IMG/VR virus record: IMGVR_UViG_2541047712_000002
DNA from: a virus
Taxonomy: Duplodnaviria; Heunggongvirae; Uroviricota; Caudoviricetes
DNA: 64,000 nucleotides
Strand: one strand, 5' to 3'
In this document: positions 1 through 64,000 of the stretch, in pieces
How the letters are laid out: every line of letters starts with the position of its first letter
Numbering within the stretch: the first letter of the stretch is position 1
Made by a program: the position numbers and the translations under genes
Notes under the pieces: generated by a model
The model's input: only the letters and a program-made list of their open reading frames with translations
Databases searched by the model: none
Told to the model about the DNA's origin: nothing

Positions 1-131
1 TTAAATATATATACGGAAGCAGGTCTTTTAAAAGACACCCACCAGAACAACTCCCTTCCGTTTCCACTTCCAAAAACTGCCACCAGTCGCTATCATCCGC
101 TCATTGTGATAAGTAAGTAACTACCTACCAG

Positions 132-881
132 GTGAGCCACATGAGCCAAATCTTTTTCGATACCATCGACAACAACCAGTACGACTTCATGACAGAGTGG
201 AATACCGCTGTTATGGACAAGTGGGTTGCTGAAAACATTGGTTTGTCGCGCTGTAAAGACGAGGCTGAACTCTTCGAGACGAAGTGGTTTGATTATCGCG
301 ACATGCATCCTCTCATGGCCACCTGTCTTTTTACGGAGGCATACAAACGTCAGTACTCAAATATCATGCTGACGCACGGTCGCGAACACTTTGAAACAGC
401 TCCGTTCACCACCGGGTTAAAACGTCTGCCTTATCAGGAGTTGTCGACTGCCAACAAAACGTCGCTATGGAAAGCACGCCAGTTTGCGGATCGCTATTGC
501 TGCTCATACGACTACTTTATCTCCACCGTTCTTTCCGCAGCTGCACGACGGCTGTGGGACAAGCTGCCGCGCCCACAGCATTTGTGGCAGCCAGAACTGA
601 TTGAGATATTTGAAGAGAAATTAGCCAGACGCGCAACAACCCGTCTGGATGACTCTCTTGTTAGCTTTAAGCATATGGGAGACATGCAGTTCAACCCGAT
701 TCAGGAAAGCTATTTTGAGTGGATTCTGGAGCGTTTGCGCACCATCCCTCGCAGCAAGCGCATACGCGCAATTTTCTCCGCTATCTGGCTAATGGAAATC
801 GTTCCAGAGCGCCTTATTTCCGCCCACTTTCCAGAAGAACTGGAAGAAGCACGGCGGTTTATTGATCCCCTATCTAATTAA
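132..881 (+). CDS. hypothetical protein immediately upstream of the helicase (helicase-loader position, unproven)
   Basis: 249-aa ORF ending 44 nt before the helicase start; no motif recognised. Confidence 0.45.
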   Translation: MSHMSQIFFDTIDNNQYDFMTEWNTAVMDKWVAENIGLSRCKDEAELFETKWFDYRDMHPLMATCLFTEAYKRQYSNIMLTHGREHFETAPFTTGLKRLPYQELSTANKTSLWKARQFADRYCCSYDYFISTVLSAAARRLWDKLPRPQHLWQPELIEIFEEKLARRATTRLDDSLVSFKHMGDMQFNPIQESYFEWILERLRTIPRSKRIRAIFSAIWLMEIVPERLISAHFPEELEEARRFIDPLSN

Positions 882-924
882 CTAATACTAGAAAACAATT
901 TGTTTAAAAAACAAAGGAAAGCAC

Positions 925-2265
925 ATGACCGAACTTTGCCATACAGGACGCGGGCTGTCCGAAGAGTTTGATGAAGATTTCCAGAACAGACTGACGGCAT
1001 ATTTTTGTCGTGATCACGAGTTTCTTACTCGTGCGGGAGATCTGGTTGTGCCTAGCCAATTTGCCAATGCGGCCAATGCCATATTGGTTAATATGGTTTC
1101 GGGCTATTACCGTATGTACAAGAGCGCGCCCTCTTCATCTGCAATTCTGGATATGCTTAAGCGTGCGAAACGCGATAAGACTATCCGTGAGGAACTATTC
1201 GCAGATGTTGTTGCTGCGTTTAAGCGCATTCTTGCAGAAAAATTGTCCGATACCTCGTACATGGTTGACCAGGTATCAACCTTCGCAAAAAGTGTAGCGT
1301 TTGATGATGCTCTGATTAAGGCTGCTGAACTGAAAGAGAAAGGCGACTTTCAGGGGGCGATGGCAATCATGGCCAAGGTTCAGCAGATTGGATCGAACGA
1401 AGCGACCGGAATCTATGACTACTACACCTCCGCAAGTGAGCGATTGAAAGCGCGTGAATATGAGGCTTCAGAGGAGTATGTACCAAACAGTATTACAACT
1501 GGACTCCCTCTTCTCGATAGGTTGCTGTACCAAAAAGGCTGGGCAAAGCGCGAAATGGTGCTCTTCATGGGGTTCGCTAAATCCGGTAAATCGACCGCAA
1601 TGGGTGAGTTTTCCATAAACGCAACACTTGCTGGCTACAATGTTCTGTATCTCTCGCTGGAGGTTCACACCACCATTTTATCCGACCGTTTTGATGCAAG
1701 ATTGTCGGAGACGGAAATGTCCAAGTTGGTGGAACGGCGCGATGAAGTTCATCGCAAGTTGGCAGAGTTGGGAGCTACGAAGGGTATTGGTAGTTTGTGG
1801 GTTGTTGAGCGTCCGTCAGGAAGTATGTCACCGGCAGATCTGGACCGTATGCTTAACAGCATGAAAGCCAACGGCATGGTGCCTGACATGGTTGTTGTCG
1901 ACTACGCAGATTTGATGCGTGCCAGTTATGACCTTCGTGATGATCGCGCCAACATTCGTAGTATCTACACCGATTTACGTGCTCTTTATGACAAGCATAA
2001 CGTTGCTGGGATCACGGCATCGCAGACAAACCGTGAAGGTGGCGCGTCAGAAGTTGCCACAATGATGCACGCTGCCGACAACATCGAAAAAGTACGTATT
2101 GCTGACCTGGTAATAACGATCAACAAAACCGAAGAAGAAGAAGCGAAAGGAGAGGCTCGTCTCTACTTTGCTGGTTCACGTAACCAGCAGGGAGGGATCA
2201 GCATTCGCGTTAAACAAAACCTCGAACAAATGCGCTTCATTGAGCGAATCTTAGACGTTACCTAA
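925..2265 (+). CDS. DnaB-family replicative DNA helicase
   Basis: Walker A GFAKSGKST, Walker B-like VVVDYADLM, SQTNREG motif; ATG preceded by AAAGGAAAGCACATG. Confidence 0.85.
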   Translation: MTELCHTGRGLSEEFDEDFQNRLTAYFCRDHEFLTRAGDLVVPSQFANAANAILVNMVSGYYRMYKSAPSSSAILDMLKRAKRDKTIREELFADVVAAFKRILAEKLSDTSYMVDQVSTFAKSVAFDDALIKAAELKEKGDFQGAMAIMAKVQQIGSNEATGIYDYYTSASERLKAREYEASEEYVPNSITTGLPLLDRLLYQKGWAKREMVLFMGFAKSGKSTAMGEFSINATLAGYNVLYLSLEVHTTILSDRFDARLSETEMSKLVERRDEVHRKLAELGATKGIGSLWVVERPSGSMSPADLDRMLNSMKANGMVPDMVVVDYADLMRASYDLRDDRANIRSIYTDLRALYDKHNVAGITASQTNREGGASEVATMMHAADNIEKVRIADLVITINKTEEEEAKGEARLYFAGSRNQQGGISIRVKQNLEQMRFIERILDVT

Positions 2266-2274
2266 AAAATAAGC

Positions 2275-61716: not shown

Positions 61717-61753
61717 GAGAACTGATTAGGCGGTGCAATGCACCGCCTTTTTA

Positions 61754-62854
61754 TCACACTGCGCGGAATGCGATTTCGCCAGGTATTACTTCACCTTGCC
61801 AATACATTTGGGCAGCAACGCGATCTGCGAGGTCACGATAAATAGCCGTAAATTCGCTATCTGGACGACTAATAACGGTTGGTGTTCCGTTATCCAGATC
61901 TTCACGAAGAGAGATATGAAGTGGCATTTGGCCTAACAACTGCGTGTTGTATTTCTCGGCCAGTTTCTGTGCGCCACCGGTGCCAAAAATTGGCTCGTGA
62001 TGACCGCAGTTACTGCAAATATGCACACTCATGTTTTCGACGATACCCAGTACCGGCACTTCGACTTTTTCGAACATCACAATGCCTTTCTTCGCATCGA
62101 TCAGCGCGATGTCTTGCGGCGTAGTTACCACAACCGCACCAGTTACAGGAATGTTCTGCGCCAGTGTCAATTGAATGTCACCGGTGCCTGGCGGCATGTC
62201 GAGCACCAGATAATCCAGATCCGGCCATAAGGTTTCTTGCAACATTTGCATCAACGCCTTGCTCGCCATCGGGCCACGCCACACCATCGCGTTGTCGTCA
62301 GTGACCAGATAACCAATTGAGTTGGTTGCCAGGCCATGAGACATGATAGGTGCCATGTGAGTGCCGTCCGGTGAGGTTGGACGTTGGTTTTCCGCACCCA
62401 GCATGGTTGGAATTGATGGACCGTAGATATCGGCATCCAAAATACCGACTTTCGCACCTTCAGCAGCCAACGCCAGTGCCAAGTTTACTGCTGTGGACGA
62501 TTTGCCTACACCGCCCTTGCCTGAGCTGACGGCGATAATGTTCTTAACGCCATTAATGCCTGGTTGGTTTTTGACGCGCTTAAGCGTGGCAATGTTGTAC
62601 GACAGCTTCCAGTCAATAGCCTTTGCGCCAGTGATACGGAGCAGATCACCACTACATTGCTCTTTCAGGTCTTCAAAAGGCTTATTCCACACGAAAGGCA
62701 TGATTAGTTCGACATGCAGTGTGTCATCCATCAACGCAACATGGTGTAACGCTTTAAGCGTAGTCAGGTTGTGTTTCAGGGTTGGGTGCTGAAAATTAGC
62801 CAGCGTACCGGCTACCATTGCTCTCAGGGCATCCGGCGATTTGGACTCGCTCAT
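61754..62854 (-). CDS. apbC: Fe-S cluster carrier ATPase Mrp/ApbC
   Basis: near-identical to enterobacterial Mrp across its length (P-loop KGGVGKSS, CSNC motif). Confidence 0.9.
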   Translation of the reverse strand: MSESKSPDALRAMVAGTLANFQHPTLKHNLTTLKALHHVALMDDTLHVELIMPFVWNKPFEDLKEQCSGDLLRITGAKAIDWKLSYNIATLKRVKNQPGINGVKNIIAVSSGKGGVGKSSTAVNLALALAAEGAKVGILDADIYGPSIPTMLGAENQRPTSPDGTHMAPIMSHGLATNSIGYLVTDDNAMVWRGPMASKALMQMLQETLWPDLDYLVLDMPPGTGDIQLTLAQNIPVTGAVVVTTPQDIALIDAKKGIVMFEKVEVPVLGIVENMSVHICSNCGHHEPIFGTGGAQKLAEKYNTQLLGQMPLHISLREDLDNGTPTVISRPDSEFTAIYRDLADRVAAQMYWQGEVIPGEIAFRAV

Positions 62855-63011
62855 CCCGTCTCCTTTATTTTAATTTGCGCAATTGTCGCCTTGTAGTGTA
62901 CTCCAGCTACGACATTTAATCATTTATGAGAAATGCTGTTATCACATGGCAGACATAAGGCCATTTTGTTACTATCAAGCCCCTTTTCACTACAAAGAAG
63001 TAATGCCTACT

Positions 63012-64000
63012 ATGACCCAAGTCGCGAAGAAAATTCTGGTGACGTGCGCGCTGCCGTACGCTAACGGCTCAATCCACCTCGGCCATATGCTGGAGCACAT
63101 CCAGGCTGATGTCTGGGTTCGTTACCAGCGAATGCGCGGCCACGAGGTTAATTTCATCTGTGCCGACGATGCCCACGGTACGCCGATCATGCTGAAAGCA
63201 CAGCAGCTTGGTATCACACCGGAGCAGATGATTGGCGAAATGAGTCAGGAACACCAGACTGATTTCGCAGGCTTTAATATCAGCTACGACAACTATCACT
63301 CGACGCACAGCGAAGAGAACCGTCAGTTGTCTGAGCTTATCTATACTCGCCTGAAAGAGAACGGTTTTATTAAAAACCGCACCATCTCTCAGTTGTACGA
63401 CCCGGAAAAAGGTATGTTTCTGCCGGATCGTTTTGTAAAAGGCACCTGCCCGAAATGTAAAGCGCCAGATCAATACGGCGATAACTGTGAAGTCTGCGGC
63501 GCAACATATAGCCCGACTGAATTGATCGAGCCGAAATCGGTGGTTTCTGGCGCTACCCCGGTAATGCGTGATTCCGAACACTTCTTCTTTGATCTGCCTT
63601 CTTTCAGCGAAATGTTGCAGGCATGGACCCGCAGCGGCGCGTTGCAGGAGCAGGTGGCGAACAAAATGCAGGAATGGTTTGAATCCGGCCTGCAACAGTG
63701 GGATATCTCCCGAGATGCGCCTTACTTCGGTTTTGAAATTCCGAACGCGCCGGGCAAATATTTCTACGTCTGGCTGGACGCGCCGATTGGCTACATGGGT
63801 TCCTTCAAGAATCTGTGCGACAAGCGCGGCGATACCACCAGCTTCGATGAATACTGGAAGAAAGACTCCACCGCCGAGCTGTACCACTTCATCGGTAAAG
63901 ATATTGTTTACTTCCACAGCCTGTTCTGGCCTGCCATGCTGGAAGGCAGCAACTTCCGCAAGCCGACCAACCTGTTTGTTCACGGCTATGTGACGGTGAA
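63012..64000 (+). CDS. metG: methionyl-tRNA synthetase, 5' portion (runs off the window)
   Basis: [35 protein letters not shown] with HIGH motif; absent from the ORF track because no stop lies in the window. Confidence 0.9.

Follow-up and report, generated by a model that had tools for sequence, protein, structure and literature searches.

A fimbrial operon lies between grxA and an inverted repeat

We analysed a 64,000-nt stretch of DNA (hereafter the window) from the virus record IMGVR_UViG_2541047712_000002 (Caudoviricetes), in which a fimbrial operon stands between a glutaredoxin gene, grxA, and a tyrosine recombinase (integrase) gene (Table 1). Genes for DNA metabolism lie on both sides of this middle block, as a first-pass annotation made from the sequence alone had described, and their content and coordinates agree with the open reading frames (ORFs), with Pfam matches and with RefSeq annotation. 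Pfam matches also bear out the earlier description of the block as an AT-rich chaperone-usher operon with a PapB-like regulator; the GC content of the fimbrial module is 34.1% as compared to 45.9% for the remaining window. The module ends immediately before a perfect 13-7-13 inverted repeat (two 13-bp arms around a 7-bp spacer), which lies about 100 bp upstream of the integrase gene. The module is missing from relatives that have almost nothing between grxA and the repeat (empty-slot relatives). Homology with these relatives stops at 10421 (junction alignment, blastn), and the insert extends from the last ~15 bp of grxA to 16331.

Table 1. Features of the window, with positions counted from its first nucleotide and the basis for each call
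Feature	Position	Strand	Basis and remarks
DnaB-like helicase	925-2265	+	RefSeq annotation of 97-99% identical plasmids, ORF list
Primase	2275-3528 (ORF)	+	RefSeq annotation of 97-99% identical plasmids; followed by two hypothetical genes, then ligase
ATP-dependent DNA ligase	4921-6243	+	RefSeq annotation of 97-99% identical plasmids, ORF list
tRNA array	7832-8446	+	ARAGORN: Asn 7832-7906, Tyr 7912-7998, Ser 8360-8446
tRNA-Thr-derived gene, 133 nt	8003-8135	+	Alignment with intact tRNA-Thr of relatives; PGAP 'tRNA-OTHER' in pTHO-010-2
grxA glutaredoxin	10188-10436	+	Pfam Glutaredoxin 8e-11; left edge of cargo slot
Fimbrial cargo module, 5.9 kb	10437-16331	+	Pfam, NCBIfam, PDB sequence search, alignment, GC
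AT-rich leader, 1.1 kb	5' part of 10437-16331		Decayed small lipoprotein-like ORF
PapB-like regulator	11534-11821	+	Pfam PapB 4e-29
Major subunit, DUF1120/Fimbrial type	11933-12574	+	Pfam Fimbrial 26.2 bits (cut-off 25.6), DUF1120 27.8 bits (cut-off 21)
PapD-like chaperone	12627-13295	+	PapD_N 3.9e-21; NCBIfam PRK09918 198.5 bits (cut-off 183); PDB search CupB2, Caf1M
Usher	13273-15669	+	Pfam Usher 1.5e-46 and PapC_N 1.3e-9, above cut-offs; PDB search PapC 2e-11
Putative pilin-like minor subunit, 171 aa	15684-16199	+	Alignment: signal-peptide-like N-terminus, two invariant Cys
Perfect 13-7-13 inverted repeat	16332-16364	.	AATGATTCCATAC-TTACTAT-GTATGGAATCATT; right edge of cargo slot
LexA-box-like CTGT-N8-ACAG	16419-16434	+	TACTGTTTACTTATACAGTG; 29 bp upstream of integrase start codon
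Tyrosine recombinase (integrase), 367 aa	16463-17566	+	Pfam Phage_integrase 4.5e-10, PHROG integrase 3e-47
Helix-turn-helix (HTH) regulator, convergent with integrase gene	17561-17947	-	PHROG transcriptional regulator 1.3e-11; putative repressor in Cyrano annotation
CobT-like protein	18510-20618	+	Annotation, profile matches
AAA_5 ATPase	20714-21949	+	Annotation, profile matches
DNA polymerase III alpha DnaE	22130-25648	+	Annotation, profile matches; one intact 1172-aa ORF
gp32-like single-stranded DNA-binding protein	28149-29177	+	Pfam
5'-3' exonuclease	29187-30182	+	Pfam
RecA split by LAGLIDADG intein	30451-32790	+	Pfam RecA, Intein_splicing, LAGLIDADG_3
RepA plasmid replication initiator (Rep3 family)	36018-37073	-	Pfam Rep3_N 1.3e-10; RefSeq 'replication protein RepA'
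SbcD/SbcC-like pair	Within 38716-59994 block	+	RefSeq annotation of 99.0% identical plasmid; Pfam, NCBIfam, PHROGs (for the whole block)
NrdA; NrdB	43333-45648; 45749-46891	+	As for block
ThyA	48009-49112	+	As for block
Dihydrofolate reductase (DHFR) DfrA51	49524-50000	+	NCBIfam DfrA51: 338 bits (cut-off 322)
3'-5' exonuclease, Dam-like methylase, RNase H, TerB-like protein	Within 38716-59994	+	As for block
DUF4942 methyltransferase	58309-59994	+	As for block
LexA box, perfect	61293-61308	+	Motif scan; upstream of UmuD-like gene
UmuD-like S24 peptidase	61327-61716	+	Pfam, PHROG
apbC (mrp), element's own copy	61754-62854	-	NCBIfam ApbC equivalog 759 bits (cut-off 348)
metG (methionine-tRNA ligase), 5' half, cut by window end	63018-64000	+	NCBIfam metG equivalog domain 470 bits

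All five ORFs of the operon are intact. The major subunit has weak FimA matches in the PDB sequence search and, judged by eye in alignments, a signal-peptide-like N-terminus. The PapC_C match of the usher (1.1e-4, 22.3 bits) falls under its cut-off of 27, and relatives of the 171-aa protein carry a pilin-like C-terminal strand (G-x-F-x-I-x-S-Y). With its usher, PapD-like chaperone and major pilin subunit, the operon has the parts of a classical chaperone-usher system. We propose that the operon is lysogenic-conversion cargo, which would be expressed from its own PapB-regulated leader and would give the carrier cell a new surface fibre.

The best curated matches of the operon are the chaperone model PRK09918 and the PRK15301-15304 series, which we take to be derived from the Stj operon of Salmonella, and the major subunit matches DUF1120. 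However, the usher reaches 351 bits with PRK15304 as compared to a cut-off of 723, the subunits reach about 30 bits with PRK15301-15303 as compared to cut-offs above 220, and the attached PapB-type regulator is a further difference from Stj-type fimbriae. By these scores, the operon would be a distant relative, at best, of the Stj-type beta-fimbriae (PMC9238391). Phase-variable operons of the Pap type have a conserved pair of GATC sites, about 102 bp apart, ahead of the regulator gene. A Pap-like GATC switch is not supported for the window operon: the two nearest GATC sites of the leader are 116 bp apart and are not kept in the variants B, C and D described below (no search for a PapI gene was made).

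The usher belongs to a small family with about eight clusters at 45-48% identity among 5.8 billion proteins; the next matches are at 24-26%. Two further forms of the operon, in addition to the window's own (variant A), occupy the same position on E. coli phage-plasmids. In variant B, the usher is 48% identical. In variant C, found on pTLYA-2, the usher and the major subunit are each 43% identical and the minor subunit is 27% identical. Variants A and B are 90% identical from grxA through the leader and the regulator gene to nucleotide 180 of the subunit gene (a left flank of 1.9 kb) and then fall to 63-70% or below detection, a pattern that reads as mosaic in the alignment. Variant B has no match among 5426 complete E. 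coli genomes, the reference set for all E. coli counts given here, and no usher relative was found in species-representative genomes by back-translated patterns.

Several usher relatives lie on contigs of 112-116 kb, and we considered whether the family is endemic to phage-plasmids. This was ruled out by four usher clusters on non-phage virulence plasmids, where the operon is followed by a SPATE autotransporter and hlyCABD and is in some cases flanked by insertion sequence (IS) fragments. In a tree of ushers, A and B group together and C is nested among the virulence-plasmid forms; thus, the family either entered the slot at least twice or spread from it. At seven virulence-plasmid loci (L007, L008, L010-L012, L016 and L118; contigs of ~116-154 kb), operons with ushers 45-48% identical lie directly upstream of the SPATE autotransporter. 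Where these loci are long enough, hlyC and RTX-toxin genes come next in most and a complete hlyCABD in some. A Pap/Sfp-like operon adjoins the fimbrial operon in two of the virulence-plasmid loci, and one record is labelled Cronobacter sakazakii. An incomplete literature search on the phage-plasmids and on DUF1120 fimbriae found nothing relevant.

Colinear plasmids place the window in a circular phage-plasmid

In a nucleotide search, window positions 5-24000 match the circular plasmid pTHO-010-2 (113,269 bp) in a single piece at 99.1% identity, and positions 40000-64000 match pYUYZPE244-1 in a single piece at 99.0% identity up to the last base, apbC and metG included. For positions 18000-42000, Escherichia phage Cyrano is 98.6% identical over 99% of the query and Salmonella phage SSU5 is 79.7% identical over 77%; the same stretch matches 912 PLSDB plasmids, 861 of which are typed as non-mobilizable. 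After rebuilding pTHO-010-2 from three fetched stretches, we found that the window is colinear with the whole circle in four blocks (5-25605, 27621-51319, 51511-61231 and 61282-64000). On pTHO-010-2, tail-fibre genes lie immediately left of window position 1, and beyond metG there are small plasmid genes, a helicase gene, ParB genes and terminase, portal, capsid and tail genes. Because of this colinearity and the flanking tail, ParB, terminase and capsid genes, we identify the window as an arc of a phage-plasmid of the SSU5/pHCM2 type: by these alignments, it is about 57% of a circular, extrachromosomal element of ~113 kb from the SSU5/pHCM2 supergroup, in the E. coli lineage of Cyrano/pLF82.

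The identity with Cyrano and the colinear plasmids agree with the first-pass view of the gene set as that of a large phage-plasmid with its own replication and dNTP synthesis. Phage structural, packaging and lysis genes are absent from the 64-kb window; tail, capsid, portal and terminase genes are present on pTHO-010-2, where the tail-fibre genes lie to the left, as had been expected. The plasmid functions are likewise divided, with the Rep3-family RepA inside the window and the ParB genes outside it on the colinear plasmid. Cyrano (= pLF82), pECOH89 and pSLy3 have the gene order in common with the window, with RepA, DnaE, NrdAB, ThyA, DHFR (dfrA51), the integrase-repressor pair and a block of S24 peptidase, apbC and metG. 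The element type is already well known, and near-identical plasmids that carry the fimbrial operon are already deposited and annotated. Virions have been reported for Cyrano only (10.1101/2022.10.28.514194). In pTHO-010-2, an IS2 copy breaks the tape-measure gene (positions 5064-10694 of our fetched locus L005, 52063-57693 of the record), and that copy may not form virions.

At the right end of the window, the UmuD-like gene with a LexA box that had been described earlier is present as an S24 peptidase gene. The apbC (mrp) and metG genes that follow are also present, each matching its NCBIfam equivalog model, but they are not the host core genes that they were taken for. In every one of the 5426 E. 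coli genomes, the chromosomal apbC-metG locus is 88-89% identical to window positions 61754-64000 at the nucleotide level, whereas plasmid copies, on plasmids of ~105-120 kb, are 95-99% identical and near full length in at least 211 of these genomes. On the colinear plasmids, metG is full length and is followed by plasmid and phage genes, and the block from the S24 peptidase to metG is also present in phage Cyrano. By this comparison, apbC-metG is a second, diverged copy that belongs to the element and that was probably acquired from a related enterobacterium. Extra copies of housekeeping genes on a phage-plasmid can pass for a chromosome junction. We found no paper on metG on phage-plasmids in an incomplete literature search.

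These results bear on an explanation in which a phage-like element is integrated in the E. coli chromosome beside mrp and metG, with its boundary or att site at 61.15-61.3 kb and with the fimbrial operon and integrase as an internal island. Such an arrangement would account for the full equivalog scores of apbC and metG, for their divergent orientation, which is that of the chromosome, for a match to this stretch in every E. coli chromosome and for the presence of an integrase. It is at odds with the lower identity of the chromosomal copies, with the plasmid and phage genes that follow metG on complete circular plasmids and in Cyrano, and with the colinearity of the window with one 113-kb circle. 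Slot probes match plasmid places only (220 and 294) and no chromosome, and no chromosome holds the operon or the integrase-proximal site, which speaks against their being native neighbours of mrp. Because apbC-metG is the element's own diverged copy, there is no chromosome junction at 61.2 kb; what pTHO-010-2 has at this position is an extra block of 2.7 kb. We consider chromosomal integration of the window extremely improbable.

A misassembly that joined plasmid, fimbrial and chromosomal contigs could produce the sharp drop in GC content at 10.4-16.3 kb and the rise to 50.4% in the apbC-metG stretch. However, independent complete assemblies from several countries have identical joins and are continuous across 10.4-18.5 kb and 61.1-61.8 kb, which argues that there is no chimerism. 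In a large contig collection, the exact usher protein is present on 154 contigs, and it lies directly upstream of the same integrase in 8 of the 8 places listed, with grxA on the other side in 7 of the 8. We give a chimera virtually no credence.

The position between grxA and the repeat is a slot for different cargo

We searched the E. coli genomes with a probe made from the contiguous grxA-repeat-integrase stretch of an empty element. The probe matches 248 of the 5426 genomes, in all cases on plasmids; 165 matches are contiguous (empty) and 83 are broken. Among the matches listed, most of the broken ones begin at query positions 323-325, which is the first base of the repeat. In the loci that we fetched, the spacing between grxA and the repeat falls into discrete lengths between 82 bp and 5962 bp, and a single right-flank class, with 52 loci, is combined with 10 different left-flank classes. 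By these comparisons, a slot exists between grxA and the repeat, and its content differs between otherwise near-identical elements. Neither the slot nor the integrase-proximal site was found on any chromosome among the 5426 genomes.

The cargo ranges widely. While the window has the 5.9-kb fimbrial operon, Cyrano and pSLy3 have a gene for a 184-aa protein, and most relatives have only 82 bp. Other elements carry a YafO-type toxin-antitoxin pair, a SASA-esterase protein, the fimbrial variants B and C, or a chaperone-usher operon that is unrelated to the window's (IMGVR_UViG_2541047850_000005, 899-5593). This unrelated operon encodes a 194-aa subunit, a PapD chaperone, an 826-aa usher and an AraC regulator, and the integrase beside it is 98.4% identical to that of the window. 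In Y. pestis pMT1, the slot holds caf1R-caf1M-caf1A-caf1 (Pfam Caf1, 1e-92). Of the 5426 complete E. coli genomes, 6 have the fimbrial operon of the window, in each case on one of these plasmids and in no case on a chromosome, in keeping with the earlier view of it as unusual cargo.

Transposition offers another way for the fimbrial operon to have arrived, in which a transposon or IS would have brought it and the integrase would be unrelated. On virulence plasmids, IS fragments flank some of the variant-D operons; in pTLYA-2, an IS3-type fragment separates operon and repeat, and one variant-A contig (L024) has a transposase fragment to its left. In the window, the module at 10437-16331 contains no transposase ORF of at least 80 aa, and the junction alignment revealed no terminal inverted repeats or target duplication, although no dedicated repeat search was run. 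Moreover, three diverged variants and two unrelated chaperone-usher operons end at the same backbone position. We think it very unlikely that a transposon accounts for the operon.

The inverted repeat resembles a tyrosine-recombinase site

The full-length repeat is present once in the window and was not found in any of 100 shuffles. We scanned species-representative genomes and viral contigs for exact arms with any spacer and found them in 7 of the genomes (Kluyvera, three Chimaeribacter, Buttiauxella and Y. pestis among them) and in 80 viral contigs. In all 100 fetched loci that show both, the repeat lies 44-100 bp upstream of an integrase 57-100% identical to the window's, and the 7-bp spacer differs by lineage. 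The conservation of the arms among these matches is partly by construction, because the search demanded exact arms; the informative part is that exact arms accompany integrases down to 57% identity. In Chimaeribacter, the arms are exact although the neighbouring regulator gene is a different one.

Among the window (16345-16351) and the loci L021 (AP023193) and L022 (CP090273) at 13062, L029 and L068, the spacer occurs in reverse-complemented forms with its flanks unchanged. The two pairs (ttactat vs atagtaa and ctattaa vs ttaatag) represent at least two independent events. Isolated copies of an arm are present in the window at 7622-7643, 6611-6632 and 22383-22395 and in two other loci (L006, 13403; L115, 17424). 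Two of those in the window have a fixed extension (CAAATGATTCCATACATCACAT); one precedes the tRNA array and the other falls between ORFs, in the 6.3-6.8 kb stretch. The third lies inside dnaE and is conserved in pMT1. The sequence ATTCCATAC occurs 5 times in the window as compared to 0.42 expected occurrences.

Across homologues 57-100% identical, the integrase has invariant ARRPDE, NKS, PRDLRRT, NHS and RVYDR motifs, with RxxR, in which R stands for the usual first H. No relative of solved structure was found by sequence. The window has only two matches to CTGT-N8-ACAG, one before the integrase gene and one before the UmuD-like gene. The box before the integrase gene is kept in the right flank of lineages with an integrase at least 82% identical (E. 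coli, Kluyvera, Yersinia), which suggests SOS control of the recombinase.

Although the integrase gene lies where the first-pass annotation placed it, it is not part of the fimbrial insert. The integrase is present in pMT1 and in relatives without fimbriae. Since fimbria-free relatives have grxA, about 82 bp, the inverted repeat, the integrase and the HTH gene in this order, we assign the integrase, its promoter region with the LexA-like box and the HTH gene to the backbone on comparative grounds. Tyrosine recombinases have been listed among the persistent genes of the supergroup (PMC7969092).

Breakpoints at the repeat suggest a possible exchange of cargo

A 6.1-kb block of grxA and fimbrial genes is ~99.9% identical in ten variant-A elements, the window included, and the window diverges from all the others from +1126 onward. 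In one variant-A element, L019, the haplotype changes at the first base after the right arm; it has 36 mismatches across the integrase gene, after which it is nearly identical to the window. Since L019 has the variant-A spacer, the crossover falls within the last 19 bp of the repeat. The breakpoints at the repeat edge in many elements and this one haplotype switch suggest, on comparative grounds, that recombination may occur at the repeat.

We propose that the repeat is the core site of the adjacent integrase and that it would act like loxP with Cre in P1, in multimer resolution and in recombination between co-resident elements and not in chromosomal integration. Integration into a chromosome is unlikely to be the role of the site, because no chromosome among the 5426 genomes holds it. 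A crossover at the repeat, if coupled to another one in grxA or to its left, would carry slot cargo from one diverged backbone to another.

The repeat could instead be an operator or autoregulatory site, with the slot varying by homologous recombination between its conserved flanks, grxA and the integrase gene. The repeat lies just upstream of the integrase promoter region and is single in each element, and the arm copies that have the fixed extension, before the tRNA array and at other places, resemble a regulon motif. The left flank that variants A and B share before they diverge is what allele swapping would give. Against an operator, the arms are exact beside integrases only 57% identical, even where the neighbouring regulator gene has been replaced. 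In its 13-7-13 layout and its lineage-specific spacer, the repeat looks like simple tyrosine-recombinase sites such as loxP, FRT and dif, which have inverted arms around a short spacer. In many E. coli elements the breakpoint is the repeat's first base, and in L019 it falls within the last 19 bp; this is tighter than expected from homologous recombination and weakens the operator explanation. We regard it as possible, though unlikely.

Several observations weigh against a recombination site with fimbrial conversion cargo on an infectious element. The isolated arm copies (7625, 6614 and 22383) are compatible with a DNA-binding motif that serves other purposes. In many cargo classes, a semi-conserved A/T-rich motif is found 10-25 nt to the left of the repeat, and the true boundary may be slightly further left. 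There is one full repeat per element, while the simple insertion of a site-bearing circle would leave two; a degenerate second copy at the left junction was not found, and isolated arms are present only elsewhere. The 171-aa protein has no Pfam family, its AlphaFold2 single-sequence model is poor (pLDDT 56), and Foldseek gave weak pilin matches only, with none below 1e-3. The structural region lies beyond the window, and the IS2 copy in pTHO-010-2 weakens the case for infectivity of the lineage.

Taken together, these data make it likely, in our judgement, that the window derives from a phage-plasmid with a cargo slot at the inverted repeat and a fimbrial operon as conversion cargo, where the roles of the site and of the cargo are those proposed above. 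A much broader claim is that an SOS-controlled integrase and its 13-7-13 site form a platform for the capture and exchange of cargo that is common to the whole SSU5 supergroup, repeatedly recruits surface-structure operons and shuffles them between diverged backbones. Such a one-slot system on a phage, integron-like or lox-like, would have as its examples the three fimbrial variants, the unrelated chaperone-usher operon and the F1 capsule locus, and a general mechanism would then also account for how caf1 came to be on pMT1. We offer this as a long shot.

Comparison with known systems

Y. pestis pMT1 (pFra) belongs to the same supergroup and has the same order of chaperone-usher operon, inverted repeat, integrase gene and HTH gene on the minus strand, followed by a 70-aa ORF and the genes for the CobT-like protein and the AAA ATPase; the same genes follow the integrase gene in this order in the window. 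The pMT1 integrase has 367 aa and is 86% identical to that of the window, and caf1 ends ~630 bp left of the same repeat. The two loci differ in that caf1 is of another chaperone-usher type, with an AraC-type regulator and the gene order M-A-1, the pMT1 spacer is CTATTAA and not TTACTAT, and pMT1 has IS elements and ymt to the left. The usher family of the window has no close relative beyond its own ~8 clusters. The fimbrial operon, as conversion cargo, would parallel caf1 in the same slot. No homologue of the window integrase was found in phage SSU5 itself at E<=1e-20.

In Cre/loxP of P1, and also in ResD/rfsF of F and XerCD/dif, a tyrosine recombinase gene is likewise paired with two 13-bp inverted arms around a short asymmetric spacer, and P1 shares with the window element the state of a low-copy, non-integrating plasmid prophage. 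Cre serves in multimer resolution in P1 (PMC7969092). The window site differs from loxP in its spacer of 7 bp, not 8, and its recombinase has no sequence-detectable relation to solved recombinases. The integrase also has RxxR where most members of its family have HxxR, and a LexA box lies upstream of its gene.

Foreign genes directly beside a recombinase's site are also a feature of the attP-adjacent cargo of temperate phages and of the integron attI platform. Integron integrases are SOS-controlled, and the LexA box before the window integrase gene is a point of likeness. Unlike integrating phages, the element was not seen in any chromosome among the 5426 genomes. Unlike an integron, it has no attC-like second sites and no cassette array, and its cargo points in the same direction as the integrase gene. 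We rejected a true integron, as there is one full repeat per element, with no second site flanking the cargo and none at the related virulence-plasmid operons.

In most descriptions, SSU5-type phage-plasmids are cryptic or carry resistance genes. They spread by infection and are common: the integrase type is present in 248 of the 5426 complete E. coli genomes, and here one of them has an intact adhesin operon. The F1 capsule genes in Y. pestis and further fimbrial operons are found at this very position, which points to a defined slot by which phage-plasmids could alter the surface of their host cells. In an incomplete literature search, we found no paper on this operon, on the conserved site or on a slot shared by caf1 and fimbrial genes.

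Other genes and variable regions of the backbone

The gene at 8003-8135 keeps the acceptor and T arms of tRNA-Thr, while its D/anticodon region is swapped for a longer structured insert (minimum free energy -50.8 kcal/mol, z -3.7); neither ARAGORN, run with introns allowed, nor Rfam recognizes it. A second variable region separates the tRNA array from grxA; there, the window has a 445-aa ORF on the minus strand (8627-9964; PHROG 18168, function unknown, no Pfam match) and relatives have 88%-identical alleles or a Gp49-family gene.

The DHFR of the window belongs to the DfrA51 family, and a phage-plasmid DfrA51 raises the minimum inhibitory concentration of trimethoprim in E. coli (PMC12217456). 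In some relatives, dnaE is split or joined by an HNH/NUMOD3 homing-endonuclease ORF (L015, 12833-16291; L019, 21334-22005). For several near-identical plasmids, the hit table lists no LAGLIDADG annotation at RecA, and their matches there fall into two pieces.

Another variable spot is a 2-kb block (25606-27620) that is missing from pTHO-010-2. It contains three ORFs without a Pfam match and a cold-shock protein gene on the minus strand (25952-26263) that is preceded by a full cspA thermoregulator 5' untranslated region (Rfam RF01766, 187.6 bits).

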